Positions 9,827-59,170 of a stretch of 60,000 bases of DNA are shown in pieces. Location: positions 18,912,001 to 18,972,000 of the forward strand of contig NC_087251.1 in NCBI RefSeq assembly GCF_037042905.1. Reading direction: 5' to 3'. The position numbers and the translations under genes are program-made. This DNA is from Lytechinus pictus (Eukaryota). Each line of letters starts with the position of its first letter. Positions within the stretch are counted from its first letter, which is position 1. The notes beneath the pieces are model-generated. The model worked only from the letters and a program-made list of their open reading frames with translations, was not told the DNA's origin and searched no databases.

Positions 9827-11733
9827 TTAAAAGTCGCATGCAGTATCTTACAGGGAACCTCATTGATGACTACATTGATGTCCTTTGAGCATGGTCTCAC
9901 CAATGCCGTTATATAACGCACAAACTGAGTATTTTAGTGTAATTTTTTTAAACAATTCTCTGTGAAACACTGGGATCTTTCAAGCAGGCACACCGGCATC
10001 AACGTCCACAGAAAACTTAAGATGAAAAATTGTCGAGCTGAAACTTGGTGCGACCTCATATTTTTAAGTTTAACATTGTATATTCAATGAGATATTGCTT
10101 TTCCTCAAAGATATCTTGCGGGATAGGGTCAATTTCTAAAAAAAATTATGTGCTATAATGGGAACAGGTTGATCAAACTGCAAAATGCAATTTGAAAATC
10201 CTATCTGACCCTAAAATTATATATAAAAAGTGATTGAAGATCTTTAAGAAAAATTTTTTCAGTCAATACAGCTAAACTCTCACTGCAACTTGCACATCCA
10301 ATAAAAAAAACACAAGAACAGAATCATTTGATACTTTTTGTTTATTGGTCTGATTTTGTTTGATCTACTTGCACAAGGTAGCTCAAATATGAAATGCACA
10401 TAAACATTCAAAATCTATAATATTGATGACGAATCAAAAGTCCTGAATTAAAAACAAAATGAAATTGTTTCCCTGTAAAACTACATCTACAGTTCTTAAC
10501 ACGTATCCTGTCATACTAGCCTTCTAGTAAAAATTTGTTGACCTGCATAAGTATAATTAGCTTGAATAACACTTTACTTTTTACCACAGAAATTGTATTG
10601 AACCCTGAATTGAATCAATATTACTGAAATATACATATAATCAATCAATAATTTAGAATATAATTGAAAGCAAACAAATCATGTATGTTGAATGTACGTA
10701 CAAGTCAAGTGTAATTGCAACATGCAAAAATTGAATATTTGATTCATTTGGATAATTCATTTAAGATACTTTAATACATTGACAATCAATATACATTTCT
10801 CCATGCTTCAAAAGCTAGTATGTTTTCTTGGCTCTTTATTGAATAAACTTGTGTACTGAGTAAATGTTCTTTTTGGACAACTTGAAATTTTGCCAGGATA
10901 ACTTGACATAGCAAGTAATGTATACGAGTTGAATTCTACACGGTAATACATTGCCCAATGGAAACCATCATATTTGACTAAGGATTCCAATTTGTGTTAT
11001 ACAATTATTGAAAAACAGGTTTTTAAAATCATTTTTTTATTCCAAAATTCTGAGTAAAAATGAGTTAATGCGAGGAATGTATAGAAGTCTCGAGAGAATA
11101 ATTAGATTATAAACTTTATCATACTGTTGGTGAAAATTGATTTAATAATCTGAATTGAAACTATTACCAGATTTTACCCAGTATACTTTGATTTTACTAC
11201 ATACATGAGAAATTTCAATCTCATTCCTTTACTTCAAATTAAAGTTCATCTATTACAGCCAGTAAATATTCATGCAGTTCATTTCATGCTGATGCTGCAG
11301 TTCAGTAAAGAAAAAGAAAAAAAAAATCAAATATACACAATGGATTGTATAATACATTAACAACACTGGTTTAAGAACATCAATATTAAAAAAGTAATCG
11401 AGCATATATAGAAAATAGAGCTAGGGAAAATATAAATATTACATTATCAAATACAGTAATCTTGCTATAAACACTGGAATAATGAGCTGGCAATTCTTTG
11501 AAAATACCTGTCATTTTGAAATACAGTATCAAAAAGAAATTGATACTAAAAAGAACATATCTTGTATATTATTGATACTAAAAAGAAATATTAATATTCG
11601 TATCTCATAGACTATAAGTTGGAAAATACTTGGTGCTGAATAATACAGGTAAAATTTTATGAATTAAAAAAGACTTATAATGAAGAGTGGATTCTATCTA
11701 CACAATCAATCTTAAATTGCTAGCTGGCCTTAA

Positions 11734-12154
11734 AGGGGAAGTTCACCCTGACGAAAACTTTGTAGTAAAAACAGCAGAAAAAATAATGAAAAACACTTGA
11801 TAAAGAAAGTTATTAGAATTTCAATTTTTTGATTTGTGACGTCATAAACGAGCAGCTAACCCATATGTTATGTAATATAAAATGCATAAATTAAATTTTT
11901 TTTAGGCCCATGATGACTTATAGGAGCTGGTGTGAAATCATTGATGTATTAGTATATGGAAGGTACAATAAAAAACATCACTTTTCTGAGAAAATGACAT
12001 TTCATTGATTTTTTTACCATATATGTAGGAAAGCTGCTGGCACATGACATCACAAATGTTATTCTTTGATGGATTTTCCTCCAACCTTCAACAATATTTT
12101 GAATGATTTTCTTGTTGCTATTTTTGCAATAAACTTTCAGGGTGAACTTCCCCT
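11734..12154. mobile_element. Kolobok-like MITE with TTAA target duplication
   Basis: TTAA|AGGGGAAGTTCACCCTGA ... TCAGGGTGAACTTCCCCT|TTAA, perfect 18-bp TIR; RR termini plus TTAA TSD fit Kolobok. Confidence 0.85.
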
Positions 12155-13254
12155 TTAATAAAACAGAAATGTATATAATTTGAATTAATAAGATAATATG
12201 GTCTAACTGGTGTGTGTTTTGATCCTCGGCATAGGAAGATACCAATTTTCATGAAACACAAAATTTGCATACGAAATGTAATCCTGTTACTTACAAAGTT
12301 AGATTTCATGTAAAATGTTTGTATCTTGCCTAGCCTTTATGTGAGGAAACTATTATAAGCTGAACCCTTTCTTTCCATCAGTTATCTACTTACAATTGTG
12401 AGATTGTAGTTTATCTCTATGGTAACAGAAAATACATAAAATGTAACCATTTTCACAGAACGAAAAAAAAATCCTGCATTATTAAAATTCTCATTAACAT
12501 GTTGCAATTCCCGATTGTACAAGTTTCAATTATTCCAAGGTTTTGGGTATTAAAATGTCAAATTTGTTTGTTTCTACTACAAATATGACCTGAAGTGATT
12601 ATTTTTCCAAAGTGAAACTGCCACATTACTAGCAAATTGTAGAAGGAATTAAAACTTAACTGCTAAAGATATGTTGTCCTAAAAGCCAAGGTGAAAAGAA
12701 CAAATACCATAAAAGAACATACATCAATATCACAGCAACTCGTGCACACAGAACTGTTCTGTTCCATTTCAAATGAAAATACAATTACAGACTGATGAAT
12801 TAAAAATACACTTCTAAATTCTAATAACTATGATCTTAAGATGGATTGCGCTTATGCAAGTAAAAATATAATCTGAAAAAATAAAGTCATCGTTGTGTAT
12901 ATGTTTGCATAAATGAATATCAATATGTATTGGAATCTTTAGAAAGCTAACAATGAGAAAACCATCAACTGACCTCATTTGAATAAGATTCATTTTAATA
13001 TCTGCATATAACCACACCTTTAATTACAATAAAAAAAATGTCAATTGAGAAAAATACTCCTGAAAAAAGCCTAATAAAATCTTCAGTATTATCAATATAT
13101 CATTCCCCAAAAAAAGTTCCTACCCACCAAATTGAGCTGCAAACATGGTTGTGTCTTAGGTCTTCAAACTTGCACCAAATTTAACAGAAGTTTAAGTGTT
13201 TTGCGATCTAAATACAGTGTCTCAGCAGGCCTTCAAGATAATTTTGGAGTAAAA

Positions 13255-13985
13255 ATGAGTTCCAACAAACATCAGTTACCGGTACATTCACCAGAGAAGT
13301 CAAGGCCGGCCACGCCGAATAAGGCGAGTGTGAAAGAGACTCAGTTCCAGGGCAGTTTGTCAAGCGAACTGCTCAGCCAGCAATCCGCTCAACCATCGGA
13401 CAACCCACCAATGTGGTTTGCCCTATTTCTCAAAAAACTAGAGTCCCGTTTTTTTTTCATCTCAAAGGTCAGATCGAGTCACGCATTGTGAAGAAGCTGA
13501 AGATGAAACAAGCCTAAAGACAGCTGAGAATGACAACAGAATCACGGACTGTACCATACAGCTGAATGATTTAGTGTCTGAGGTGAAGAAATTAAAACAG
13601 GAAAAGTTGGATATGACTTGGAAAATAGATCAAGAAGTAATAACCTGGTCTTGCATGGAATTCAAGAGGAGAATTGTGAGGTGGTGCAGGAGTTTATCCG
13701 GGATTTTGTTGGCCTTTCTCCTAGCCAATATTCAATCAAGCATTGTCATCGTACTCCCACTAGGTCTACCAAACCAACAAGCGATCAGCAGAAGCCAAGA
13801 TTCATAAACGTCGCATTATCCAACTTTGCTGGCAAGGAGAGAGTTTGCAAAGCATCCATTTCAAAGCTGAAACAGAGCATGTTCAAAGGTAAGAAAATCT
13901 TTGTCTCTGAAGATTTTTCCATGCATATTAATTAGCACAGAAGAGAAAATCTACATAAGTTGAAAAATCTCAGAGAAGTCAAAAA
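13255..13985 (+). pseudogene. Frameshifted LINE ORF1 (L1-type coiled coil + RRM + CTD)
   Basis: ATG 13255, coiled-coil-like stretch, then ENRSRSNNLVLHGIQEE...HCHR...KPRFINVALSNFAGKERV...KKIFVSEDFS, typical L1-type ORF1 motifs; several frameshifts/stops; no ORF2 follows. Confidence 0.85.
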
Positions 13986-15122
13986 GCCTACGCTAGGAGT
14001 CCACTGGGATGACGCCAGCTGGTGCCAATTCGCGCCAATGCAATTTGCTGTGGCGCCTAGTGTCGCCAATAAGGTGCCTCGTGGCATGCCGTGGCTCAAA
14101 CTGCCTCCCGACTGGCTCACGGCGGCCCGTAACGGCGCAAAAAATTGAATTTGGCACTAAGAATGTTGAAATGTTTGAAATTTTTGTCGCTTTCATCAAG
14201 AAATCATCGCGAAGTGTCCACCAAGTGGCACCAAATGGCCCAAACAATCCACCTTTTAGAATCAACTGGAATGTAATCGCGTGCCAATGAGATTTTGCAC
14301 CACCTGGCGCCACTTAGCGTCAAATAATTCCAACAAAGGTGGACACTCCGCGCAAAAGCGCTCCAAATGTAGTGGCGCGAGCCAAACAGCACCTGATTGG
14401 TGATTACTTCATGCCAAATACCACTTGGTTACCGCCATTCGGTGCCACTTGCTGCCTGCAAATGCAGGACTGCATCACAGGACTTTCTCATACAACTTTC
14501 AATATTTGACTCGATAGCACCTCCATGCAGTTTTTTCTTCACAATTTTACAAGATTTTACATAATTTTAAAAGAAGATGCCCCCCAATGGCAACAAAGAC
14601 AGTAGCAAGGGGAAGAAGGATAAACTTGAGAAGTCCAGGATGTTGCTCCAGACCTTTCATCCCAAGCCTAAGAGTAAGACCAGCCCTACCAGTCATCATG
14701 CAAGTGAGGCTGAAGAGGAGGTTGCACAAGCAAGCCTTGGTAAGTAATCATGAAGGTCTAGATTATCCACTGCTTACTGGTCTAGTGGGTTGGAAAAGTG
14801 CTCCTAGGATACTCTAAAAAGTGTTTCTAGGGTGATACAAATAATATAAAGGAATAAGAGAGAAAGTGTATGGCAAGGTGAACTAGGCTCTGTCACCTGA
14901 CAAAAGAAGGCAGAAAGGAAAGAACAAGAATTGAATTAGTATAAAGAAATTAATAACTGGTTGAATGTACTCCATCTTTAGACACCTGATGTTCTGTTTA
15001 CCAAAACAAACTCCATCCCAATCAAGAATACATAAAATAAGTTAAGCTGGCAGACCATATCTGAAAGGAGAACCCCACCTCAGCGGTGAGACCGTCAACA
15101 GGAAGAAGGGTCTGGTTAGACG

Positions 15123-15158
15123 GAACTCATGACCCTTGCGTTATCAGCACGATGCTCT
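15123..15158 (-). pseudogene. tRNA-Ile-like fragment (D-arm end to T-arm start)
   Basis: Reverse complement AGAGCATCGTGCTGATAACGCAAGGGTCATGAGTTC resembles the tRNA-Ile core AGAGCGTGGTGCTAATAACGCCAAGGTCGCGGGTTC; no acceptor stem. Confidence 0.55.
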
Positions 15159-15378
15159 CAGATTATTGTTAATATACATGCATATTATGTTGATTTGTCT
15201 TTCTCCATTTTTTCCCCTTTTATTTTCTCTTTTCTCTCTCTCTCTTTAAACAATACGAATTAGAACAGTCTGAGAATTTGTAATTGTGTAACTAATATTT
15301 ATGGCTAATATTTCCATATTGGTTTTCTGGTTAGTTATTTCCCATTACTTTTTAAGATCGTTTTATATCGCTTTCACC

Positions 15379-16418
15379 ATGACTTCAACTGCAGGCGATT
15401 ACATACTACTAGTCAAGCGATTAAACCCCAAACTACAGAGGCTAGTTTGAGACACTTCCTGGAAACTGTGGGTGAGATAACCCACATTAAATTTGGTAAA
15501 GATTCAATAACTGGTGAGAGCACTGGCAATGCCCACTGCATCTTTGTGAATAGCCACGTAGCGTCCGAAGCCATTTTACAGGTTTTGGATGGGGAAGCTA
15601 TTAAAATAACGGAAGCCTCTAAGTCAAACCTCGTACTAGATGTAAAGTCAAGAGTCGAGTAATGTAGCAACACCCAAGGTTAAATCACAAACTATTATTC
15701 AAAATTCCCTTAAATTATCAATTTTTTTGGGTGTGCCACAACACAAAAGGGGTAAGGTCCCTTTGAGGTGTGGATATACGAAATAAAATGTCTTCAAATA
15801 GACAATGATTGCAGCCCGGGTGAGCTGGCTAGGCTTGCGAGACGTTCGTTACGGGGAGAGGCAGGTCAGCTTGTTTTAAACATGAATGTAGAGGCAACGG
15901 TTGAGGAGATTGTTGAAAAGCTAGGCGGCTTCTATGGCACAGTAGAATTGGGGGCCGCACTTCTACAACAATTATACTCAACCAAACAGGGACCAGAAGA
16001 ATCGGTGACCGCCTACAGCACTCACTTAAAATCGGCAATCGATAAGGCAGAGCAAAGGAAGGGTATCTCATCCTCCGCAAAGGCCAAGACCCTTCGCGTT
16101 GTTTTCTGGAAGGGGTTAACAGATGCTTCCCTTAAGCAAGGCATTCTGCACCGGTACGAAGCTATTGACAATTTTTTACAGTTTAGACTACTGCATACAG
16201 TTTAGACTACTGCATACAGTCACATATATTTTATTGCATCATATAGTACCCTGTTAGGACTTCCTGTCTGCATATTGTTGCTCACATCCCACTCAACAAA
16301 GGAGTACCATCGGTGCGTCCTAAAATGCATATTTGCTGAGTTTCAGGAAAATTATCCCATCCATCCTATCTCACACGTTTCCTCCGATCACATGCCCGAA
16401 TAGTCTATTTTGTTTAAG
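15379..16418 (+). pseudogene. PNMA-like Ty3/Gypsy gag relic, copy 1 (RRM-like N-terminus + capsid)
   Basis: ATG 15379, RRM-like LRHFLETVGEITHIKFGKDSITGESTGNAHCIF; capsid FEVWIYEIKCL...RRSLRGEAGQLV...LYSTKQGPEESVTAY...LRVVFWKGL; frameshifts; no pol. Confidence 0.85.
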
Positions 16419-16428
16419 CTTAACAAAA

Positions 16429-17251
16429 AGGTTTTGGATGGGGAAGCCATTGAAATAGCGGAAGCCTCCTAGTCAAACCTCGTACTTGATGTAAAGTCAG
16501 AGTCGAGTAATGAAGCACAACCTGTGGTTAAATCACAAACTATTATTCAAAATTCCCTTAAATTATTAATTTTTTTGAGTGTGCCACAACACAAAAGGGG
16601 TAAGGTCCCCTGTGAGGTGTGGAAATACAAAATAAAATGTCTTCAAATAGACAATGATTGCAGCCCGGGTGAGCTGGCTAGGCTTGCGAGACCTTCGTTA
16701 CGGGGAGAGGCAGGTCAGCTTGTTTTAAACATGAATGTAGAGGCAACGGTTGAGGAGATTGTTGAAAAGCTAGAAGGCTCCTATGGCACAGTAGAATCAA
16801 AAGTCGTACTTCTACAACAATTTTACTCACCCAAGCAGGGACCAGATGAATCGGTGACCGCCTACAGCGCTTGCTTACAATTAGCAACCGATAAGGCAGA
16901 GCAAAGGAAGGGTATCTCATCCTTCGCAAAGGATGAGACCCTTCGCGTTGTTTTCTGGAAAGGATTAACAAATGCTTCCCTTAAGCAAGCCATTCGGCAC
17001 CGGTACGAAGATAATTTTGTTGACACTTAGACTACTGCGTACAGTCACATATTTTGATTTTATTGCATCATATAGTATAGTACCCTGTTAGGACTTCCCG
17101 TCTGCATGTTGTTGCTCACATCCCACTCAACAAAGGAGTACCATCGGTGAGTCCTAAAATGCATATTTGCTGCGTTTCAGGAAAATTATCCCACCCATTC
17201 TACCTCACACGTTTCCTCTGATCACGTGTCTGAATAGTCTATTTTGTTTAA
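16429..17251 (+). pseudogene. PNMA-like gag relic, copy 2 (tandem duplicate of 15580-16418)
   Basis: Co-linear, highly similar copy from AGGTTTTGGATGGGGAAGC to TAGTCTATTTTGTTTAAG; ORF 16524-17030. Confidence 0.85.
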
Positions 17252-17679
17252 GGATAAAATTATTTTGCTGCAGGCCATATCTGAAAAGAGAACCCCACCT
17301 CAGCGCTGAGACCGTCGGCGGGAAGAGGAGCCTGGTTAGACTATTATGGACTTTCATGGGCTGTAGACTAATTGTATTGTATTAGCACTATACTCTGTTG
17401 GCATTTGTTACATGTATGTCAAAGAACTTAGTGGGAGCATAAATGGTCTCTTTTTGATAAGTGCACCTTGGTTGAGGGGTTTATTGATAAAAAGTACCAT
17501 TTAGAGTGGAATTGGTAATATTTTATTACTTATTTCGTACCATAAGATGTATATTTATTTAAAATATGGGTGTTTGTTGTCAATGAATAGCAGGACCTTT
17601 CTCTCATGAGGAAAATGAAGAAGAACCCACAAACAGGAAAAAGAGGAACAGGGGCGGTTCTGGAGCGAGGCAGAGGACC

Positions 17680-17880
17680 GTGAACTCAATGACACTCAGG
17701 AAGATGAGGCTAAAGAGTACTTGCTGGGGTGCCCGGGCCTCCACAACAAGCGGATGCCATGTGGGCCGAACTTGACAAGAAAGACGAGGCCTGGAGAAGG
17801 CTGTAAGACCAGCTGGGGGTTGACGTCAAAGACATCCACACTTGGTACAAAATGCTGTGCAAACACTATTCACAAGGATA
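17680..17880 (+). pseudogene. MADF/Myb-SANT-like domain relic (possibly Harbinger accessory protein)
   Basis: Manual translation with one frameshift and one stop: ELNDTQEDEAKEYLLGCPGLHNKRMP/WAELDKKDEAWRRL*DQLGVDVKDIHTWYKMLCKHYS, matching the MADF pattern P.LW...KK..AW..I...LG.......W..LR..Y. Confidence 0.6.
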
Positions 17881-18027
17881 TACCTTCACTTCATTAACAG
17901 CTTTTCAAAAGATTAGCTGTATCTCAAACGTTCATACATCTGTAATCTGTTGTCAATTCGTTTTGATAGTTGTGCAGAGATTGGGAAGTACTTAATTTAT
18001 TGGTGTATTGATTGGGGAATCTCCAGA

Positions 18028-19050
18028 ATGGGGAAAGCGAGTAAGGTGTGGGAATATTTCACCAAGACTTCAGTCAAGTGTGAAATGTAAACTCTGCAAT
18101 GTTGTTTACAAGTACAACGGAGGATCTACAACTACAATGAATGGTCATCTTCTGAAGAAGCATCCAAACATTGTAAACGCCCCTGACCAACGCCATGGGC
18201 CAATAACCTTCTTTAGGAAAATGCCCACACTGAGGAGGAAATTATGAAAGGTATCGTCTCGTTGGTTGCCAAAGACTATAAGTTGTGTCGAGGGAGAGGG
18301 CTCATTCAAATCCTAGAACCGGGCTATACCATGCCAACCAGGTGTACAATCACAAACAGACTATAAAAAGCGCTGTATGACATGAAAAGGAGGAGTGTCT
18401 GCGATTTCCTGGGAGAGGTTACCTCGGTCGCATTAACTACAGAATGTTGGATAAGTGTTGGGACAAACGATTACATGACAGTAACGTCGCACAAAATTGG
18501 CGACAGGTGGGAGAGACAAAACTTCATCCTTGAGACGGGACCTGTGAGGAGCATTGAAGATGATGATGAGCCCCATCGCCACACAACTGAGGCCCTGCAA
18601 AACCAACTGAGGAATGTGACTGAAGAGTGGGGCTTAATGGAAAAAAACTGCTGGCACTGTCCACGACAACGCAGCTAATGTGCGACGAGTTGGCGAAGGG
18701 ATTAATGCTGATGACCTAGGCTGAGCAACCTATAAGCTACGAATATGTGTGAACTTGGTCATGTACTCTGTTCCTAGCATTAGGAACATCTGTGCTACAG
18801 CAACTAGGCTTGTTGGGCATTTCAAGCATTCTGTGGTAGCGATCAATGCCTTTGCAACTGAACAGAAACAGCTTGGAATCGCAGAGCACAAGCTGATACA
18901 AGCAATCAAAACATGTTGGAATTCAACAAACGACATGTTGATTCAGCTAGAATAGCAGAGGTGGGCCGTTTGCCGAGTTTGAAATAACAGACGTTACACA
19001 AGCCAGACAGATGCACGGACACTAGAACTCACAGACCAACAATGGCGATT
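18028..19050 (+). pseudogene. hAT (ZBED1-like) transposase relic with BED zinc finger
   Basis: MGKASKVWEYF../VKCKLC..KYNGGSTTTMNGHLLKKH (BED); SVALTTECWIS..DYMTVTSH, HRHT, VHDNAAN, LVGHFKHS, KLIQAIKTCWNSTNDML motifs; many frameshifts; C-terminal part missing. Confidence 0.9.
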
Positions 19051-19550
19051 GGTAGGTCTTCTTGACAGCCTATAAGCGTTTAATGTGAATAAACATATTT
19101 AATATGTAACTGTATTCAGATATTAGGAGCCTAGATATTATGGATGAAATTTCACAAAATGCTTTGGCTACTATTACTATTATTATAAATACTTAAAAAT
19201 TTATCCAATGTATATTTAGAGTTATGTCAATATAAGGAACATACATGTACATCTAATGATAAAGACACACATTTTTAATGTCATTCTTCTTATTAATTTT
19301 GTCGTCCTACGGTTTATCATGATTGTATTATTTATGATTATTTGTTATATTTTATTTCTTTGTGTGAGATTCTTTGCCAAATTAAATAATAACTAGTAAA
19401 AAAAAGTTCCTACCATTAGAAATATTATTCTTCACATTAACAAAACAAGATAAAAGTTTTGTTAAGCAGGGCAAATATATATATATAAAAAAACAATACA
19501 ACGATCATATGGTACTATAATTCTGACCGATTGGGCATAAATATGAACAT

Positions 19551-19710
19551 CGGAGCATTTCATGAAAGGACTTGTCGGACGTTTTATCTGACAAGTCCCA
19601 TTTTATCCGACAGTTACCATAGTAACAGTACCTCTCAGCCAATCAACATAAGAGAAAGATGTCAGATCTGACAACTTGTCGGATGAAAATCTTGATGAAA
19701 CACTCCCCTG
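19551..19710. mobile_element. Short MITE; truncated inverted relative at ~32534-32624
   Basis: Imperfect TIR GGAGCATTTCAT / ATGAAACACTCC, internal TTGTCGGA/TCCGACA repeats and GTTACCATAGTAAC hairpin shared with 32600-32614. Confidence 0.55.
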
Positions 19711-20151
19711 TTGTCACATAATACTTTTTTATTTCTCAGAGCAAGAAAGTATAACATCATTTGTTCAATACTAGCTGCACATATACTTAACAGCAGCTTT
19801 AATAAATAGTGTCATTCAATATAAACAAGCTTGATACAAAAGGACCATTTGAATGCTTCCAAGTACACAACTTCCACATTTAATGAATGTTTTACCCCAA
19901 TAGAGGTACCTGATCATTTTTTTCAATTCACTTTTCATTTTTATTGATAGGTGAAGATTTGAAATGGCATGTGGACCTTCATTGCACTTTTTAAATTGCG
20001 CAGGAAAGGCACAATTTATTTCACATTTTGAAAATTCATCTTTCTGGTCTTTCCAAACAATGCAGATAATCTTGGGACCGCAAGATGCAAGAAAAATAAG
20101 TGTCTTGGCAAATAGAATAATATACATCACATAAAATTAGTTATGTAGATG

Positions 20152-23100
20152 TCATAAAAAGCCAGGTTTCCTGTTTGGTGAATCGGCTTTGTCTTGCGAG
20201 AGGAGCTTCTGAAATTCTTCAACTTCTATTATACTGCCAGATAACCTGTAGAATAAATTTAGTACAAAAAAGAGCAAATACACACTTCAGTTGAAGTATA
20301 CCAGAACACAGCCACCTCATCCCCTGCTCAACAAAATAGAGGAATGCCTGTGAAATTCTACATGAAAATATAAATCAGTGTAATCTTACAAAAATTAATT
20401 AGCTATTAGGGAAGTCAACCCTGACATCAAATTGGTTAAAAATTAAAGAAAAAATATAAACATGAAGGATTGGTGAAAATCTATCAACTTAAATTGAATA
20501 TGAAATGTTAAATGTATAAAACTCGTAGTGTACTACCCCCTTGTATGCCGTTTTATATCATTTCCATATATTGCCATGGAATTTATAGTACATGACGTAT
20601 TGGGATAGCAGCTCACAGTGCATAACACTTTAAAAATATGTGAATATGCAGTTTTCAAAATGGAATTTAATTGATGTTTATAGATTTTTTTTTTGGATAA
20701 CACTAACTTGATGCCAGGGCAATTTTCCCCTTTAAAATCAAATATTGTTGTCTTTTCTATGCACATGATACAAACTTATCAAAATGCAAGCAATAGAACA
20801 GTTTTAACTTTTCAACTTTAGAAAAACTAAAATACTACTTACTTTCCAAATCCATTGAATAAAGCGACAATTTCTTCTCTGTCGAGTGTGAGCTTCGATT
20901 TTCCAGTAGCACCCTGCTCTGTGAATAGAATCTTTAATGCTGTACCTAAACCTTTAATCTGAATACAAGCAATAAGAAAAGTGGTAATGTAGAATGTAGA
21001 ACTGGGATGCACTGCAATGCTAAAATAATTATTTGAATCATTGAGACAGAAAGATTGATACTGAGAACAGGAGAAAAAAGAACAGGTAAAAAGTACTGAA
21101 AAGAGACAGAGAAGAAAATAAATACAGCATGAGAATGTAAGAGAAATAAAACATTCCTGAAAATATATAGCATAAAGGAAAGACATAATTGAGATAAAAA
21201 CAAGTGTTTCAAAAAAACATGAGCTGGAGGCTTTTTAACAAAGATTAAAATGTTTAAAAAAATTTACATATAAGTCCAGGGGGGGGGGGTGGCTACTCAC
21301 TCACTTATTAGGTACCCATGTGAGTCCAAGAAAATGTCAATTTCTGACCTAAGGTATTGACATTTTTTGGAAAAGGGTATTTTCAGTCTTGCATTCAACG
21401 TTTTTAGGAAAAAGAAATACCTTTTAGCTGGTCCTTCAAAGTCTACAATATATAGTGGTATATTTTACAAATTTTTACTTCATTTACAATATTTAAGTGT
21501 ACATTTGGCACCTTGTTAACGCCATTTATGACATTTAGGGGGGAATTCGAACCAAGGATTATGCATGGGTTACAACATTTAGGGTCCAAGTTTGAGGTGC
21601 CTGGACGAGCAAGGTTACCACTTCAATTCTTGAAATTCTTGAAAATGACCCAAAATGTTTCTGAGTATTCAAGCACCTTGTCTGAACTAGTCTTTACTGA
21701 CAAAATAAAAGTTCTCCAGAATTCATCATTATATTAACATCTGGTAGACATACTGACCTGTAGTTTACCCCATAGTTTACACTTGTCACATCCAACACAG
21801 TCCATGATCCTTGAGATGTTTCTGAAATGGGTGCGGAATTCTTCCTGTAGCATGAAGGGGGGGGGGGGAACAGATTCAGTAGGGGGCCAAGGAACAATTA
21901 CTCCTCAGTCTTTCAAATGATAGCATAGGACCTACAATTACTATCCGACCTAGCTTTAGATAAATCCAGATGTGTTGAGACCAGAACTTATCCATATTTC
22001 AGTGACATGACTGGATATACCAGCACAAGATTTTTACGAGGATTTATAGGGTAGTTTAATGGAATGTAATACACCTATTTCTTTGGCATTATGGAAGATG
22101 TAATATAGATTATTAATCATACCTTTGTGTTTGCACAAGATGAAAATGAAATTAAACAGATATTTCATGTTTTTTTGTGAATTGAATGAAGAATGAAAGA
22201 GGGATTGCTCTCTCAGAAACTGGGATAAATGATGGCATGAATAAGCAAGGTTGGCTTGTACTTTGAAGGTCAAGTGTCCTCTTTTCTTAGATATACATCC
22301 TTTTATAGCTGGGTGACAAAACACAGAGAAAGCGGGAACCAATTAGAATCTCCTTGCCAATACACTGAAGACATTTAACACTGCATACCTAGCAGCATTA
22401 AATACAACATGGTTTTCAATTTCATGTTCACATTTTATTTCTTTGTTCGAGTCCATATATTTGGAAGGTATAGACAAAGGCACCTGCCAGTCTAAAGCAC
22501 TGATGCATTAGACAACATTCTTACGTTTCATTGAATATGTATTTTACTCCGTTTGATTCTAATTTGAATTAAATACATTAGAATTGATCATTTGCATAGA
22601 ATTGTTGATTTATTGCACCTTGAGTTGTAGAGCTTGTTGGTGGTCTCCCTGAAACATTGCACTCTCATTAAAATGTTCAGGAAATGATTTGGCTATTTTA
22701 AGAATCTCTTTCACGACTCTCTGCACCTCCTGATCTTCGACTGGTTCTCCTGAAAATTAACAGGATGAAATGGGTAGATGGTGTAAGATAGGACTGAGGT
22801 TATATTGAATAAGTGAAATCTACTTGGACTTATCGAATATATAGGTTTGGGCTCAGTAACACAAGGATTTGGAATCAATCTCTAAATAACAACTGTAATT
22901 GCAGTCAAGACCATTATTGAACAGGCTTGTAAGTCATGATAACTACTATAAATCAATTAGCATAGTTGTTTTCAATTTACAATCAAAATTTGGTATTACA
23001 AGGCAAGTGGTATTGCCTGAAATAAAAAATAATGACTTGGATTGGTGATAAATCACAAGATATCCAATATTCTAATCTAAAATTCACATTCAAGCAATGA

Positions 23101-35100: not shown

Positions 35101-38100
35101 CAAGGTTTCAAGAGGTAGACAAACAATTAGTGAATGCTTATACCTTGGTCACATTTGTTCTACGGCGGCCGTACGGCGAGTCGAAACCAGCCGTTTAAAA
35201 AAAAATTTGTACCAGCTACATATAGGTGCTTTGGATGAAAATGAATAAAACGACTGTTTTCGACTCGCCGTACGGCCGCCATAGAGCAAATGTGACCAAG
35301 GTATAAGGCTCACAGCATGACATCAAGTCACTTGACTTTTACTCTCACATAGACCTCTTCACTTTAAAGAAACATTTAACAAACTTGTCTCTTTCTGTTG
35401 ATGCCCACAATCAAAGTATCGATTATTATGGCACAGATTATGGCATACATGGCAGATTTTTAAAGAGAGATAAATGCTATTTATGCTTCTATTAGAAATT
35501 GTTGCTCTCAAAAAACAAGGCAAAAGCAATTTTGTGTCTCGCCCACTTATAACCAGAAATATCGTGATTTGCGAGGGCACGAACAGAATTGTATCGAAAC
35601 TTCATAGTGAAATGACTGGGATGGAATAACACTTGTCATAAGAGCCTTGCACGTAAACTTTAATGTTGACCTGAAAATAACATTTGTCCTTACCGTGTGA
35701 CCTCCGACTGAAGCATAACATGCAGGTCGCCTAAGTAAATCTACCAACCAAGTTTTGTTGAAAAGTGACATACGGTTGCGGAGTTAGGTGTCATAAGAGA
35801 GTCTTGCATGTAAACTTTAACGTTGACCTGAAAATGACCTTTGACCTTACCATGTGACCTCCAACTGCAACCTAACATGCAGGTCCCCCAAGTCCATCTA
35901 CCATCCAAGTTTGGTTGAAAAGTGACTTACGGTTGTGGAGTTAGGTGTCATAAGAGAGTCTTGCATGTAAACTTTAACGTTGACCTGAAAATGACCTTTG
36001 ACCTTACCATGTGACCTCCAACTGCAACCTAACATGCAGGTCCCCCAAGTCCATCTACCATCCAAGTTTGGTTGAAAAGTGACTTACGGTTGTGGAGTAA
36101 GGTGTCATAAGAGAGTCTTGCATGTAAACTTTAACGTTGACCTGAAAATGACCTTTGACCTTACCATGTGACCTCCAACTGCAGCCTAACATGCAGGTCC
36201 CCAAATCCATCTACCATACAAGTTTGGTTGAAAAGTGACTTACGGTTGCGGTGTTAGGTGTCATAAGAGCGTCTTGCATGTAAACTTTAACGTTGACCTG
36301 AAAATGACCTTTGACCTTATCATGTGACCTCTGACTGCAGCATAACATGCGCGTCCCCAAAGCCCATCTACCATCCAAGTTTGGTTGAAAAGTGACTTAC
36401 GGTTGTGGAGTTAGGTGTCATAAGAGAGTCTTGCATGTAAACTTTAACGTTGACCTGAAAATGACCTTTGACCTTACCATGTGACCTCCGACTGCAGCAT
36501 AACATGCAGGTCCCTCAAGTCCATCTACCATCCAAGTTTGGTTGAAAAGTGACTTACGGTTGCGGAGTTAGGTGTCATAAGAGAGTCTTGCATGTAAACT
36601 TTGAAATTGACCTGAAAATGACCTTTGACCTTATCATGTGACCTCTGACTGCAGCATAACATGCGCGTCCCCAAAGCCCATCTACCATCCAAGTTTGGTT
36701 GAAAAGTGACTTACGGTTGTGGAGTTAGGTGTCATAAGAGAGTCTTGCATGTAAACTTTCACGTTGACCAGAAAATGACCTTTGACCTTATCATGTGACC
36801 TCCGACTGCAGCATAACATGCAGGTCCCCCAAGTCCATCTACCATCCAAGTTTGGTTGAAAAGCGACTTACGGTTGCGGAGTTAGGTGTCATAAGAGAGT
36901 CTTTCATGTAAACTTTAACGTTGACCTGAAAATGACCTTTGACCTTACCATGTGACCTCGACTGCAGCCTAACATGCAGGTCCCCCAAGTCCATCTACCA
37001 TCCAAGTTTGGTTGAAAAGCGACTTACGGTTGTGGAGTTATGTGTCATGAGGTTTGTGACGGACGGACGGACGACATTTTGATCCCTAAGTCTCGCCTTC
37101 ACCTCTGGTGGGCGAGACAATAAGAAGCATGATATATTACCAATTTTTAAAATTGACATCTCTGGTACAGAGACTGAAACAAAGCCTTATGTTTTATGGT
37201 GAAATTGAATTCTTGCAATATCTCTTACCTTGAAAAACTTGAAGTAATTCTTGGTTAGCAGGCTATTGAGAGGTGGGAATAGGCGTATATTGTTGAACTC
37301 ACTCACAGATTCCACCTTACATGTGCAGTCATCCACAACACCATTTAACTGAAAATGAGGGCAAAATGGCAACAAAAAAACCCCATTAATTTCCTAAATT
37401 CATAGTTTCTGACTGGTTCTGCATACATGTATGTAGGTATTCTGAAAAAAAAGTATCACGATCAGTTCTAATATGGAGTTATTTAGGCATTGTGGGTACC
37501 ATACAACAAAGGTTCTCTGACTTGCCCTATGATTTGATATTGGAGCTGATAATTTTTTAAATTTTTTTGCAAGTTAAGGAAAGGAGCCCAAAAGCATGAA
37601 TAAGTTAAAAATCAATTATTTGATAACTTTTTTTATATCATGATTCCATTTACATAGACCTGTATTAAAGAATAGCATTTTTTTAGTATTTCACTATCCC
37701 AACTCCACTAGAGCTTTATTCCTGCTTAAATCCTCAAATATTATGTAAAATAATTTTCAATCCCATTTTGTTTCTCATTTTCATTTGTATCTCTAAGATT
37801 ACTGAAAGTCTACACGACATGACACCGGTGACTACATGTAAGTACAGTAGTTGTTTGTTTTCCTAAAATGGTAATTACAGGTAAAGGTAGGCCTATACTG
37901 TCACTAAAATCATTCCCTTTTTACAATTTCTTTCGGAAAATATTTACTTTGAAAATGTCTTTTACAAGGTTTAGCCCTAAATTACCTGGGCTACTTTGCG
38001 AGCCTTAAGTCAGGGGGGGGGGGGGTGGGGGCTTTTAGGCCCCCTAAAATCTTGGCTGCACATCGCACTATCGTGACAAAAATTTGCACAAAGATAGAGA

Positions 38101-43969: not shown

Positions 43970-46900
43970 TTATGTTCCTGATGATGAATAGCTAGTCTTT
44001 TCTAACATGGGTGGGATACACACAACATTCATCAACCCTTCTGCAAAGCCATCAAATATTTGCTGCTGTTTGAGTTTAACAGTCTCCAGCTCTTCTTCCA
44101 GCCTTCTTGCAACATCAGACATTCTCTTAATCTCATCATTTATGTTGAGGGTATTTGGAGGGAGAGGTTCAGCTTTTAAGCGAGTATTCTTTGTCTGTCC
44201 AGGCTTGAAGGCAAACTGAACCGATGAAAGCGGAAAGTTCTTTGTATGCTTCTTCCGGTGTTCTTCATAGCTGTTGGTGAGCTGAGCTCTTACTGCATTG
44301 TCAATGTCTACCTTTCTCTTGTGTATGTTGGATTGATCAGATAGCTGCCAAAGAAAATTAAAGTAATATCAATAAGTTGATGCATTTAGCATAATGCTCT
44401 AGTTTAATCAATAGTGTTCTGCATTAACTATCAATCTCACTTCCTTATCAGAAATCATTGAAAGTGATGTGTCAAAAATCAGGAAATAAATGGAATGGTT
44501 GATGATAAACTTTTTTAAAGCAACAAAAGAATTATTTCCTGTACCCTGAATCTGTTGATTTCTATGAGAACTAGAACCCAAACAAACAATATAGAACTGC
44601 ACACTACATGTATATCTTGTGTAAAACCAATCACCACTCAACAGACATATCTTGTTTTTTATTTTTATGAACCATATATCAGAATTTGTCAACTTTGTTT
44701 TTTTAATACATGTTTATTCAAATTAATAGACCAAAAATTACTAAAATTACTAGTAGTCTATCAACAAATTAAACCAAAACATTAAGATCTATTTATTCAT
44801 TAATCATTCACCAATTTGAAACACATTTCTTCATGGTCACTTGACATATGATATAACTATTCAAGACCATTTGACAGAATATTTAAAGTTAATCTTTACT
44901 TATGACTGTATTTGGAGAGTTACTTAACATCCAACCATAATGAGATGTAATGAGATATCTGTTCATTTATTTAATGTCCAGCAATTATTTCATGTATTCA
45001 ATCAATCATGTTTCAGTTACTATTTACCATCTATTTCTATACTGTTTTTTTTTAAATAATTATTATTATTCTCCTTATGAAGGGGTCACTACATTGAGAT
45101 TTTCATAATGAAAATATTATATATGATTTTACCTGATTGACAAGGTCATTGGCCCCTCTTGATTCAAGTTCATCCTCTAAACTTTTGCACTCTCTGATTA
45201 GTTCATTCTCAAGACCATCAAGCTGCTGTAATCGTCTAGATAACTCTGTGGTTGCTACCAAGTGATGCACATATTGATTGTTGGATGAGGTGGGTGGAAT
45301 AGTGTTTTCTGAAGCAGACATTTTGGCTTCATGGACGCTTAACTGTGGTTGAAGAAAGCACATATAACCATAAATGTTTCAACTTAGGATCACAGCTTCA
45401 CAGTTTGAAAGAAGAAAATAGGCATAAATATAGTAAACCTGGTATAAGTTTGTGAAATATTTTTATAACGGTTGTAAGGACTCACATTATAATTAGAAAT
45501 AATGTGTCATATAAGTCAATTTTAGTGATGAAAGTGATTTTTTTTAAGTCAGTTATTTCATTATTACCAGTAGATCCTAGTCTGCAAGCACAGACTCATA
45601 TTTGACATTTAAAAAAATAACAGGTCTAGAGTGAAGACTAGCTTCCAAAGACTCTGTGCCAAATAACAGCCAGCCACAGTACATAGTGAGTCTAGTCTCA
45701 CTAATTCAGACTCTGCATTATTCACTATGTGAACTGCGAAAACCAAGGGTATGTGCCTGCAGACTAAGAAGATGCAGAGGCAAGTTTGACTTTAATTTGA
45801 AAATTTATTCTACTTATATTTTGAAATGCAATAGCATCGTAATGCATTTCCATTGTATCTTTACAGGTAATATATATTTTGGGCGATGATTTGAACTCTG
45901 AATCATCAGCCTTGGGTTGTGGGCCTTGGGTGTTTCAGTGATTTCTAAGGCAAAAAGGTCTTTTGAAAAATAGAAAAATTTGAATCCAGTGGAATGAAAT
46001 AAGATCATCTTTTGATGATGAGAGAGGAGGGGAAGAGGGCAATGAAGTCCTACTCAACAACTTTATATCCTGTAATTAAATGCCTAGTATACACAGTATG
46101 AGGAATTTCTTTTAAGCTTTGTATTGTTTCATAAAATGGTATTACTTCTGTCAATGTCATAACTTTTTTTTCTCATCCAAAATTTCTTTCTGGTTTTAAT
46201 TAATTTTCCCTATTTGTTTTCTTCTATTCAGCTTGCTTTATAATTTGAGTGAACATGATCACTGAACACAATGTCATTTCATGTATTATACACAGATTAC
46301 AGCCCTAGTTACCTAGGGCATAGAGCTTATTGGGTTAAAAGGCTTATAATTAGACAGTTTTTTTTTCAATTTGATTACAACTCTACTCACCATCCACTGC
46401 CAGAATACAGGCTCAGCTTCTTTCCAGGTTACACATGCTTGAAGAAGGGATGCTTGTTTATCAAGGTGCAAAAGGTACTAAGAAAAATACAAACAGAAAA
46501 AAATTATTTACTAATACCGTACGTGAAGTAATATCCTTAACAGGGAAAAAAATACACGGGGGGCTCAGGGCGAATTCGCCCCCGAAATGCTAAAAAGAGC
46601 CCTGGAAAATAAACAAGTGGAATGCCTCTGGCCGTCTCACCTGCATCACGCGATTCAATTTAGCAGCAGTGCTGATTTTGAAAACTACTATAACTCGCAC
46701 AAGATGTTCAGTGATACTTGGTTACTCTTATTTCCACGTTTTATGAACTAGACCAATACACTTATAGAGATATGATGGCAATTCAACAAATACCCCCAAC
46801 GTGGCCAAAGTTCTTTGACCTTACATGACCTTTGACCTTGATCATGTGACCTGAAACTCGCACAGGATGTTCAGTGATACTTGATTACTATTATGTCCAA

Positions 46901-49900
46901 GTTTTATGAACTAGACCAACACACTTTCAAATTTATGGCTGTAATTCAACAAATACCCCAATTTGGCCAAAGTTCATTGACCCTAAATGACCTTTGACCT
47001 TGATCATGTGACCTGAAACTTGCACAGGATGTTCAGTAATACTTGATTACTATTATGTCCAAGTTTCATGAATCAGATCCATAAACTTTCAAAGTTATGA
47101 TGGTAATTCAACAGATACCCCCAATTCGGCCAAAGTTCATTGACCCTAAATGACCTTTGACCTTGGTCATGTGACGTGAAACTCATGCAGGATGTTCAGT
47201 GATACTTGATTAACCTTATGTATAAGTTTCATGAACTAGGTCCATATATTTTCTAAGTTATGATGACATTTCAAAAACTTAACCTTAGGTTAAGATTTTG
47301 ATGTTGATTCCCCCAACATGGTCTAAGTTCATTGACCCTAAATGACATTTGACCTTGGTCATGTGACATGAAACTCAGGCAGGATGTTCATTAATACTTG
47401 ATTAACCTTATGGCCAAGTTTCATGAACTAGGTGCATATACTTTCTAAGTTATGCTGTCATTTCAAAAACTTAACCTCAGGTTAAGATTTGGTGTTGACG
47501 CCGCCGTCGCCGCCGCCGCCGCCGCCGCCGTCGCCGTCGGAAAAGCGGCGCCTATAGTCTCACTCTGCTATGCAGGTGAGACAAAAAGAGCCCCCGAAAA
47601 TCTACATTTGAATGTTAAAGCTTATCCAAAATTGCAGATTAAAGCAGTAGGTTGTGAAAAGTAACCCCTGAAAATAAAAAAATATTTTTTTGCCTGATCC
47701 TTAGTCACTTAAAATTGAAGAAATCATTAGAGCTGGTTGCATCACTATTACCATCATTAAATTTATATTCCACATGAAATATTGCAAAAGGAAGAATGTA
47801 AATTGTAGAAGGCAGACTGACCACCTGATTTGATTTTGCATGATTCCACTCTATGAAAGCACGGTAGAGTCTGACCTCCCAGATTTGATAGCGAGAGTTT
47901 ATCTTGAAAATTAATTTTAACTCTTTCTACAGGCGTTGTTGCAGAGAGGAGTCTTTTGAAATAATGTTATGGAGTTTTCCTTAAAAGGTTTTTCTAGTTC
48001 AATCCTCCATAACCTTGACAGTAGGGCACTAACAAGCCTGGATTGATCTTCTGAAGACTGTTATACTGTTAAATTTTTTGAGGATATTTTGTGATTTACG
48101 TCAGCAGGTTATAACACTAAAAAGGCTTACAAATCAGATTCTGAGCCACACCCAATAAAAAATAACATTTAATCAGAAATATTTTTTGGGGGCCTTAACT
48201 ATTCATAAATCAAACATAATATACATGACAGATGAGGAGTTAAAACATCATCTACTCTGTTATATCACTGGAGTAAATTTGTCACCTAAAATATTTTGGC
48301 ACCATCAAAGGTGACCTGTAGGATAAAGACATTGCAAATAATGGGTGTATTTTTAGAGCTTTTCAGAATAATGGTTCACAAAGAGCCTTAAAACGGACAT
48401 AAAAGATGCTTAGGAATTGACCCTTGATACGTATCAGTAGATGTAACATTATGAGTTTGTGTGGGAATAATAATCTTATCTTACTTGTTGTAACTGCTTT
48501 GGATGTCTGAGTATAAAGGTCTCCAATGCTGTAAGATGATTGATAGGACTAGGATGTGGCATGCCAATGCCTTGAGTAGCTTCATGTATGCGATGCATTG
48601 CTGCACATAGACCTTGTTGTTCACAGTAAAGAGCCTTCAGAGTTAACCTGAGTCGCCCCATCAGCCACACCAGGTATTTGGCCTGTCCATTGGGAGACGA
48701 TGAGACAGTCTGCTTTAGCCCCTTAAGATAAAGTTTGAAAAGAGTAAATATTTTCTGATGCAAGATTAGAGGATGGATTTAATAATGTAACATGATGAAG
48801 ATCAGAGGATGGATGAATAAAATCATTTCAATATTCCTAATTAATGTTTAGACCCATAGCTATGCCATTTGAAACAAAGGGTTGCATTGGTGAATTAATT
48901 GGGGATAACTGCTCACTTTTTCTTGTTAGATTAATGAGTTTTGATTAGGCCTATAGTTTCTTGCATCCACTGTCAACCAGTGTAGCTTAACTGTGTAATA
49001 CAGTATCTAAAGTTCCCACAAAATCATCTAATTATTTCATATGATTAGTACTATGTATATTTTGTTTTGACTTGAGCATTATGCAATTTGGCTGCAAGCT
49101 CTTTGAGCAAGATAATGTTTTAATCTTTAGTATGCTAATTTACCGTATGTATACTGAATGTCATCAATAAGTATCAACCATGTTCGTTTATTCGCATTTA
49201 TAAATCAAATGAAAGAATACAATTTCAATTTAACCATTTATTTTCAGATTATAAGAATACAACTTAGGTCCTCTTTTTTTCTTTAAAAAAAAATTAGGCT
49301 ATCTAAAGTGTTTATCCTCACCTGAGATGAAGTCTTGTCATTCCCTGAATTTAAGGCTTTCTGAGCTGCTCCGAGATGAAAGCTTGAAATTAATGGGAAC
49401 GAATCTTGTAGGTTGATTTTCACCTGTTCAGACACAAAGCTTAACTTTGCAAGGAGCCATCCTATGGCCAGGAGGATGTCTCTGCTTCCGACATCATCGC
49501 CATGGAAACCAGGGCACCTGTAACCAATCTGGTAAAGCATTGACTGAAAATCTGCCTTTTCGAAGCTAGTCTTTGTAGGTTTGTTGATAACTGATAACTT
49601 AAAGTTGAGTTGCAGTAATTCTTGGAGTAACACCCACATTGATGAAATCTGAGTGAAAGAAGAAGGTACATGTACATAAATTACAACAATAAAAAAAACA
49701 GTAGGAACAATATGGCATTTGAATTTAGCATTATTTTAATAAATGATTTCTAATTGTAATACACTGCATACTTGTAAATGAATATGAAATACAACAATAG
49801 AATTTAATATCTAATCATTCAAATTAAACATGATTACAAATTTAGTTCTAAACCACAAGTTGCAGTTGAACCTCACAAATTTGGTTTTAGTAGATCTAGA

Positions 49901-57832: not shown

Positions 57833-59170
57833 TGTCTCGCCTGCATAGCAGAGCGAGACTATAGGCGCCGCTTTTCCGACGGCGGCGGCGGCGTCAACAT
57901 CAAATCTTAACCTAAGGTTAAGTTTTTGAAATGACATCATAACTTAGAAAGTATATGGACCTAGTTCATGAAACTTGGACATAAGGTTAATCAAGTATTA
58001 CTGAACATCCTGCCTGACTTTCAGGTCACATGACCAAGGTCAAAGGTCATTTAGGGTCAATGAACTTAGACCATGTTGGGAAAATTATTTTCAAAATCTT
58101 ATCCGAAGGTTAAGTTTTTGAAATGACATCATAACTTAGAAAGTATATGGACCTAGTTCATGAAACATGGGCATAAGGTTAATCAAGTATTAGTGAACAT
58201 CCTGCTCGAGTTTCAGGTCACGTGACCAAGGTCAAAGGTCATTTAGGGTCAATGAACTTTGGTCAAGTTGGGGGTATTTGTTGAATTACTATCATAAGTT
58301 TGAAAATTTATGGATCTAGTCCATGAAACTTGGACATAAGGTTAATCAAGTATTAGTAAACATCCTGCCTGAGTTTCAGGTCACATGACCAAGGTCAAAG
58401 GTCATTTAGGGTCAATGAACTTTGGCCAAGTTCGGGGTATTTGTTGAATTACCATCATAACTTTGAAAATTTATGGATTTAGTTCATGAAACTTGGACAT
58501 TAGGTTAATCAAGTACCACTGAATATCCTGTGTGAGTTTCAGGTCACATGACCTTGGTCAATGGTCATTTAAGGTCAATGAACTTTGGCCGTGTTGGGCG
58601 TATATGTTAAATTACCATCCTAACTCTGAAAGTTTATGGATCTAGTTCATAAAACTTGGACATAAGAGTAATCAAGTATCACTGAACATCCTGTACGAGT
58701 TTCAGGTCACATGACCATGGTCAAAGGTCATTAAAGGTCAATGAACTTTGGCCGTGTTGGGGGTATTTGTTGAATTACCATCCTAACTCTGAAAGTTTAT
58801 GGATCTAGTTCATAAAACTTGGGATATAAGAGTAATCAAGCATCACTGAACATCCCCTGTGAGTTTCAGGTCACAAAACCAAGTCAAAGGTCAGTTAAGG
58901 TCAATAAACTTAGGCCATGTTGGGGTAATTGTTGAAGTGCCATCATAACTTTGAAAGTTTACGGATAGAGTGAATGAAATGTGGACATGGGTGTAGTTGA
59001 CAAGTCTTAAGTCACCGTTCAAATGTCATCTATGGTCAATGAACGTGGTATTATATCATTATATGAATGGTGTTTTTGTGAATGATTATTTTATAGTAGT
59101 TTTCAAAGTTAGCACTGCTGCTATGTTAAATTGCGTAATGCAGGCGAGACTGCCAGAGGCGTTCCACTTA
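57833..59170 (-). mobile_element. HINE-like element family B, copy 2 (inverted, ~6-7 units)
   Basis: Reverse-complement match to 46612-47584 at both ends; GTCTCGCCTGCAT (57834) / ATGCAGGCGAGAC (59138); (GGC)n. Confidence 0.85.

Follow-up and report, generated by a model that had tools for sequence, protein, structure and literature searches.

The window considered here is the whole 60,000-nucleotide stretch of DNA (C7:18912001-18972000 of an 811.7-Mb eukaryotic assembly), within which we analysed a block of ~6.3 kb (13109..19414) that opens with the 5' end of a long interspersed nuclear element (LINE), continues through relics of several other transposons, and is bracketed by an exact 16-bp direct repeat. 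Our leading but tentative reading is that this repeat arose as a target-site duplication in a single round of L1-type target-primed reverse transcription, in which a ~6.3-kb cDNA of a read-through RNA was inserted. An earlier reading of the same DNA, made without database searches (hereafter the sequence-only reading), had proposed that the block moved as one retroposed unit; the end signature and the LINE head on which that proposal was built have stood, but no source locus or second copy was found to go with them, and single-unit retroposition is best described as plausible but unproven. The block is a single locus, and it represents neither a new kind of element nor a carrier family.

The End Signature of the Block

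The repeat, AAAAAAAGTTCCTACC, is a 16-mer that occurs exactly twice in the window, on the plus strand at 13109..13124 and 19399..19414, even with 2 mismatches permitted, and brackets 13125-19398. The left copy, a putative target-site duplication, is preceded by CCCC and begins at the junction of this pyrimidine run with an A-run (CCCC|AAAAAAA, corresponding to T7/G4 on the primed strand), while the right copy is preceded by 1 extra A (position 19398). At 16 bp the repeat falls in the ~7-20-bp range of L1-type target-site duplications. An ATTAAA hexamer lies at 19381-19386, 11 nt upstream of the 8-A run, and the A content reaches 70% over 19379-19405 (27 nt that end just ahead of GTTCC in the right repeat, with that repeat's own A-run included). 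The end signature of the block appears to be the native signature of this genome's LINEs, since an intact resident copy (L057/L068) shows the same architecture. That copy, which encodes an ORF1 (open reading frame 1) of 278 aa and an ORF2 of 1,256 aa with Exo_endo_phos, RVT_1 and zf-RVT domains, is bracketed by AACTTTAGCATGT(AG), a 13-15-bp duplication starting at an A-run, and its 3' end reads AATAAA...ATTAAA followed by 18 A. The bracketing repeat, the CCCC|A-run junction and the ATTAAA ahead of the right A-run had all been put forward in the sequence-only reading as hallmarks of target-primed reverse transcription; all three are present, and the comparison with the resident LINE strengthens the case made from them.

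A pair of identical 16-mers is unremarkable by itself, and the repeat is informative through its position beside the predicted 5' end of the LINE. The left copy ends 131 nt upstream of the ORF1 ATG, which is within ~15 nt of the LINE 5' end expected from relatives. In 200 simulated order-3 Markov windows of 60 kb (pair spacing 300-10,000 bp), an exact pair anchored to the 120-nt interval at the expected LINE 5' end was obtained 0 times, with an expectation of ~1.4e-3. A real duplication is probably the correct reading of the flanking repeat, because the repeat is anchored, its target is of the native type, and the LINE head is near full-length.

The LINE Head

The block begins with a LINE 5' untranslated region (5'UTR) of 131 nt (13125..13255, plus strand), for which two intact LINE subfamilies of the genome, L057/L068 among them, have 146 nt. 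The motif TTCAAAnTT..ACCAAAT is common to the block and both of these subfamilies and lies 40-50 nt from the 5' end in 3/3 UTRs compared. The kinship of the 5'UTRs is drawn from this motif and its offset and not from the alignment score, which is weak (p of 0.017 against one of the subfamilies and of 0.17 against the second). The L1/Tx1-like ORF1 relic that follows (13256..13986, plus strand) has 2 frameshifts and 1 in-frame stop and is missing its last ~20 codons. It matches intact LINE ORF1 of the genome with tblastn E values of 1e-34/2e-33 and has 83 protein-level relatives there, so that the LINE 5' end and ORF1 named in the sequence-only reading were borne out; the Pfam match to Transposase_22, with an E of 0.027, falls under the cut-off. 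No trace of ORF2, endonuclease, reverse transcriptase or LINE 3'UTR was found in 12500-20000 (tblastn, E<=10), in agreement with the earlier claim that ORF2 and its reverse transcriptase are missing.

Internal Organization of the Block

The ORF1 relic breaks off at a foldback repeat block resembling a miniature inverted-repeat transposable element (MITE) at 13987..14460, whose family terminus GCTAGGAGTCCACTGG begins exactly where the ORF1 homology ends. LINE sequence is not resumed 3' of this MITE-like block, and its flanks CAAAAAGCC / CAAAAGCGC, which match by eye at only 6/9 positions, give no convincing duplication of the MITE's own. It is followed by a spacer (14461..14777) that is unique in the genome and has no homologue; an open frame of 58 codons within it (14571-14747) belongs to no known family.

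The spacer gives way to the long terminal repeat (LTR) of a Ty3/Gypsy-like element (14778..15120, plus strand), whose 3'-most ~75 nt can be aligned to the same LTR end in relatives, and then to a primer-binding-site region (15121..15158, plus strand). Over the 45 nt of 15114-15158, comprising LTR end and primer-binding site, the block is 93% identical to the 5' LTR end junction of a relative on C3 (L066+L067, G000:C3:36988000-37004000, minus strand). This relative is full-length. Its two LTRs, of 1,633 bp each, are 99.9% alike, and it has a Gag of 434 aa (RRM_1 + PNMA + zf-CCHC) as well as a pol frame of 1,532 aa. By eye, its primer-binding region resembles the complement of an internal tRNA part. 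The available part of PMC11011659 describes a Gag architecture of RNA-binding domain, capsid and nucleocapsid (RBD-CA-NC) for vertebrate metaviruses and the PNMA family, and the present genome has this architecture too.

Only residues 25-278 of the 434-aa RRM-PNMA-CCHC Gag are kept in the block. The first copy of this Gag N-part (15397..16180, plus strand) carries RRM_1 at 15423-15578 and a PNMA-like capsid at 15759-16088, with 4 stops and 1 frameshift. A second copy (16416-17009) lies within a tandem duplication of an 849-bp unit that takes in most of the retained Gag part (15580..17257, plus strand; 15580-16428 / 16429-17257), in which 740/828 aligned positions are identical (89.4%, or 10.6% diverged), and the two gag copies are matched by Pfam PNMA at 2e-7 and 6e-6. 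Downstream lies a second LTR 3'-end piece with a degenerate primer-binding-site-like stretch (17258..17400, plus strand; 88% to 15050-15121). The relic has no pol remains (protease, reverse transcriptase or integrase) and, apart from this second LTR-end piece, no full 3' LTR; with its 3' end absent, it offers no 4-bp duplication of its own to compare. Gag matches in the genome at E<=0.001 number 13, of which 3 are in the block and 10 are spread over ~5 other regions (C3, C1, C2, C10 and C5).

We considered and rejected the possibility that this part of the block is an RRM-PNMA host gene with exons at 14578-14747, 15053-15115 and 15397 onward: the C3 relative is a full LTR retrotransposon, and the "small exon" of the host-gene model is the LTR end plus primer-binding site. 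The LTR part at 14783-15030 is also found on C5/C17 and in a tandem array of 3,059-bp units on C12. This array (G000:C12:19096423-19127194, L007-L016) comprises at least 10 units, each holding the LTR parts of window 14783-15030 and 15045-15121, 423 bp apart, and it may have been built from an LTR-derived unit.

A segment unique in the genome (17401..17859, plus strand) separates the Ty3/Gypsy relic from a BED-hAT relic (17860..19086, plus strand) that corresponds to the 5' leader and exon 1 of its relatives, starting ~150-170 nt upstream of its ATG and carrying a zf-BED domain at 18065-18166 (6e-6). Its 4 genomic BED-hAT relatives are 73-80% identical. One relative has an open first exon of 397 aa, a ~365-nt intron and further exons that carry Dimer_Tnp_hAT, a domain seen nowhere but in the relative L004. 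Against the 397-aa relative (tblastn E 9e-126) the relic is interrupted by at least 9 stops in frame and shifts frame at least twice. Terminal inverted repeats, an 8-bp duplication and the C-terminal exons are all missing from the relic, which is cut at ~17860 and ends in intron 1. An open frame upstream of the closest hAT relative (L002 3677-4273 (-), G000:C10) has what by eye looks like a GIY-YIG nuclease motif of the type found in Penelope-like elements.

The final part of the block is an AT-rich, intron-like tail (19087..19398, plus strand), similar to intron 1 of the relatives until ~19230 and unique thereafter; it measures 312 nt from exon end to A-run, as compared to the ~365-nt intron of the hAT relative. 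We also tried the tail as a LINE 3'UTR and rejected it: in local alignment it scored 30, where shuffles averaged 23.4 (p ~0.05-0.07), and 5% of shuffles and 7% of 153 other window segments scored at least as high.

This composition departs in several respects from the one given in the sequence-only reading. The hAT relic was correctly recognized, but the "at least three" additional transposon classes come down to Ty3/Gypsy, hAT and a MITE (the foldback block having been missed), because the MADF protein, placed at ~17590-17870 in the unique segment, is not supported: it has no Pfam match at E<=10 in three frames and no relative in a genome protein search. Two Gypsy gag copies are present as described, though they arose as a tandem duplication of one gag, and the statement that LTRs are absent does not hold given those at 14778-15120 and 17258-17400. 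The notion of a carrier that collected its cargo should also be given up: the pieces were joined as DNA at some locus and not gathered by an element. Two of the internal junctions, namely the MITE terminus at the ORF1 break and the intact 5' edge of the LTR, are transposon termini, and the mosaic was therefore built at the DNA level by nested insertion and deletion instead of by template jumps between RNAs.

Sequencing Runs and Related Taxa

Two DNA runs of a related taxon (~90-96% alike) cover 30/30 bins, and contigs from this taxon span internal junctions at 13843-14335, 16240-16532 (the duplication junction) and 17250-17753. As the related taxon shares these junctions, the mosaic predates that divergence. 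In both runs the contig covering 13186 ends 59 letters off, possibly at ~13127. Two small runs of another label, whose library type is unrecorded, gave contigs identical to 16526-19347 that also cover 19711-20000; they have the same low depth over the right half of the block and the flank on the side of the ERO1 gene, and none of their contigs covers 12983-13504. Should these runs be RNA, the block's right half may be transcribed as minus-strand ERO1 read-through or as a long ERO1 3'UTR.

Origin of the Block

In the event that we favor, the template would have been a read-through RNA from a source locus that is now absent, with its start at the 5' end of a LINE remnant reduced to ORF1. The RNA would have traversed an adjoining graveyard in which MITEs, the gutted remains of a Ty3/Gypsy element and the first exon and intron of a hAT lay together, and would have been polyadenylated at or close to the ATTAAA in the hAT intron. 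Endonuclease and reverse transcriptase would presumably have been supplied in trans by an autonomous LINE of the kind still in the genome, as the RNA encodes no ORF2. An origin at a source locus is preferred to remodelling in place because ~4.5 kb of ORF2 and 3'UTR are gone without trace from behind a nearly whole ORF1, because the 3' end continues from the hAT intron and is unlike a LINE 3'UTR, and because a perfect 32-nt duplication (two copies of 16 bp) is easier to reconcile with an event that came after the internal duplication, now 10.6% diverged, than with one that came before it. The shared plus-strand orientation of the LINE, gag and hAT relics also speaks for the favored event. The number of stops in the hAT relic and in ORF1 (9 vs. 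1, p ~0.05; 11 vs. 3 with frameshifts included, p ~0.14, by hand calculation) is only suggestive of a hAT relic more decayed than ORF1. Taken together with the perfect duplication and the 89.4% identity of the tandem units, it is likewise only suggestive that integration is younger than the decay of the cargo.

A number of observations weigh against this account. No second copy, source locus or family of the 6.3-kb block exists in the 811-Mb assembly, so the family with the same module order and different duplications that the sequence-only reading anticipated did not materialize. Of 64 matches of the block to the assembly, none besides the self-match is longer than 1.4 kb and 63 are pieces of separate families, and the segments 13125-13990, 14161-14782, 17347-17900 and 19180-19420 return self-matches only. 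An empty allele was also not seen, in that none among the 15 joints listed (62 more exist) skips 13125-19398 in the four runs compared, which contain 0.06-0.22 of the query words and match the left flank only weakly. The poly(A) at the 3' end of the block amounts to at most 8 A, 7 of which are part of the repeat, compared to A18 in the intact LINE copy. A 6.3-kb transcript must have read past 7 other AATAAA/ATTAAA hexamers inside the block (8 in total on the plus strand of this AT-rich DNA). The ORF1 is broken, and trans-mobilization of RNAs that lack ORF2 is inefficient in the L1 systems studied. Lastly, if no anchor to any feature is demanded, 45% of the simulated windows have an isolated direct repeat pair that is exact over 16 bp or more, with a mean of 0.68 per window.

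The last figure is also an argument for a chance repeat, whereby the relics came and decayed independently in AT-rich intergenic DNA and the A-rich 16-mers flank them by accident. The real window indeed has another isolated 16-mer pair at 39400/54561, 2/100 dinucleotide shuffles give two matches at <=2 mismatches, and the minimal A-run tail, the abundance of polyadenylation hexamers and the single-copy state of the block are all as this explanation would have them. It is nevertheless doubtful, given the anchoring of the left copy described above, the rarity of AAAAAAAGTTCCTACC (4 occurrences in the 811-Mb genome, with a reversed control that also gives 4), and the agreement of the repeat length, A-run start and pyrimidine/purine junction with the intact resident LINE. 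Remodelling in place, which accepts the duplication as real, is in our judgment unlikely as well. A full-length LINE would have inserted and made the 16-bp duplication, and the MITE, the Ty3/Gypsy element, the hAT element and other DNA would have entered later, with deletions that took all of ORF2 and most of each newcomer, such that only the LINE moved as a unit. The same end signature is expected at both ends of the block, no source locus or second copy is needed (and the assembly has none), and the marks of DNA-level insertion at the MITE terminus and the LTR edge follow naturally; the unique sequence at 14461-14777 could be the spacer between the ORFs in the subfamily of this LINE (556 nt in one relative), and the unique last 165 nt of the block could be an unrecognizable LINE 3'UTR. 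The cost is 4 or more insertions plus 5 or more deletions, the latter erasing ~4.5 kb yet sparing ORF1 and the right repeat. All of this remodelling, the 10.6%-diverged duplication included, would fall after the insertion, which makes 32 untouched nucleotides less likely (estimate 0.07-0.2). The tail is not significantly similar to LINE 3'UTR sequence and continues from the hAT intron, and the hAT relic seems, on weak evidence, more decayed than the LINE that it would have entered.

An RNA-level origin of the mosaic can be envisaged as a chimeric cDNA, in which reverse transcription started on a polyadenylated hAT pre-mRNA and jumped via other transposon RNAs, at last onto a LINE RNA that was copied to its 5' end. 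The LINE, gag and hAT relics are all on the plus strand, so that every coding relic is sense-oriented; the leader upstream of the hAT ATG gives that piece a transcript-like start, and 17258-17400, with its LTR end and primer-binding site, looks as the 5' part of a Gypsy RNA would. Bi- and tripartite chimeras made by LINEs are described in the available parts of PMC2104539 and bioRxiv 10.1101/2025.02.02.635956. At least 5 jumps would be required, however, the ORF1 break coincides with a MITE terminus, a DNA-level mark, and the Gypsy piece starts at the 5' edge of the LTR, including an upstream part that is missing from the 5' end of genomic RNA, all of which renders this route very improbable. 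A more ambitious version of the retroposition account, in which the block is the sole surviving SVA/HAL1-like composite non-autonomous retrotransposon outside mammals, mobilized by ORF2p of a resident LINE, also seems improbable to us; the ORF1-only head would then give the promoter, and perhaps ORF1p in cis, with read-through into the Gypsy and hAT relics.

Genomic Setting and Neighboring Features

The block is intergenic and lies on the downstream side of the final coding exon of ERO1, a gene on the minus strand (~20842-21234); its GC content of 0.42 is to be compared with 0.28-0.35 in the flanks. The left flank is unique in the assembly, as is the right flank except for an interspersed repeat at 19552-19710, and a paralogous empty site does not exist. 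The ERO1 C-terminal exon is found at window 20842-21234 (-) with a Pfam value of 5e-9, and a second host-gene exon, of TEDC1, at 48479-49735 (-) with 6e-16. A MITE-like element of 429 bp, whose 22-bp terminal inverted repeats TTAAAGGGGAAGTTCACCCTGA are perfect, occupies 11730-12158, and a diverged third terminus of this element is present at 20715-20735. The interspersed repeat at 19552-19710 is young and ~160 bp long, with 93-98% identity to copies on many chromosomes and 2,596 first-look candidates, and the read depth over it is enormous in 4/4 runs. Satellite-like tandem arrays lie at 35712-37040, 46700-47480 and 57900-58960, with periods of ~157 bp, 162-163 and 192 bp.

Relation to Known Systems

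The proposed event would resemble in its working an L1 3' transduction launched from an ORF2-less, HAL1-like remnant, with an outcome similar to SVA. As in L1 3' transduction, a LINE 5' end, downstream non-LINE DNA and a downstream polyadenylation signal are enclosed by one duplication round the whole. Unlike L1 3' transduction, the LINE part ends inside ORF1, without ORF2 or a LINE 3' end, and therefore the event could not be self-driven; the block also carries 5.4 kb of transposon relics, with no source locus in the assembly. HAL1 is presented in the available part of PMC5753468 as an ORF1-only, non-autonomous L1 derivative of mammals that has arisen several times. The block shares with HAL1 a LINE head with ORF1 and without ORF2, presumably mobilized by ORF2p in trans, but HAL1 is a multi-copy family and the block is one locus with a broken ORF1 and mostly foreign relics. 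SVA is a composite retrotransposon family whose thousands of copies share a defined order of modules. The block is similar to SVA-type composites in its patchwork of transposon classes, its LINE-type duplication and the polyadenylation signal at its end, and different in having no second copy in the assembly. The available parts of bioRxiv 10.1101/2025.02.02.635956 and PMC2104539 also catalogue chimeras of LINEs with diverse RNAs. In these, as here, one duplication surrounds fused pieces of different origin, one of them a LINE; there the LINE most often forms the 3' part and the pieces are joined at the RNA level, whereas in the block the LINE is the 5' partner and two junctions, being transposon termini, are DNA-level.

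As it stands, the block is one old, broken, single-copy locus, and its main value is as a worked example, the lesson of which is that an exact flanking repeat is informative only where an element end, predicted on independent grounds, anchors it. Were the single-event reading true, it would mean that LINEs here can transport over 5 kb of foreign DNA, in this case remains of an LTR element and a DNA transposon, to another place in a single step, and such carriage by LINEs is the process that shuffles exons and regulatory DNA in mammals.

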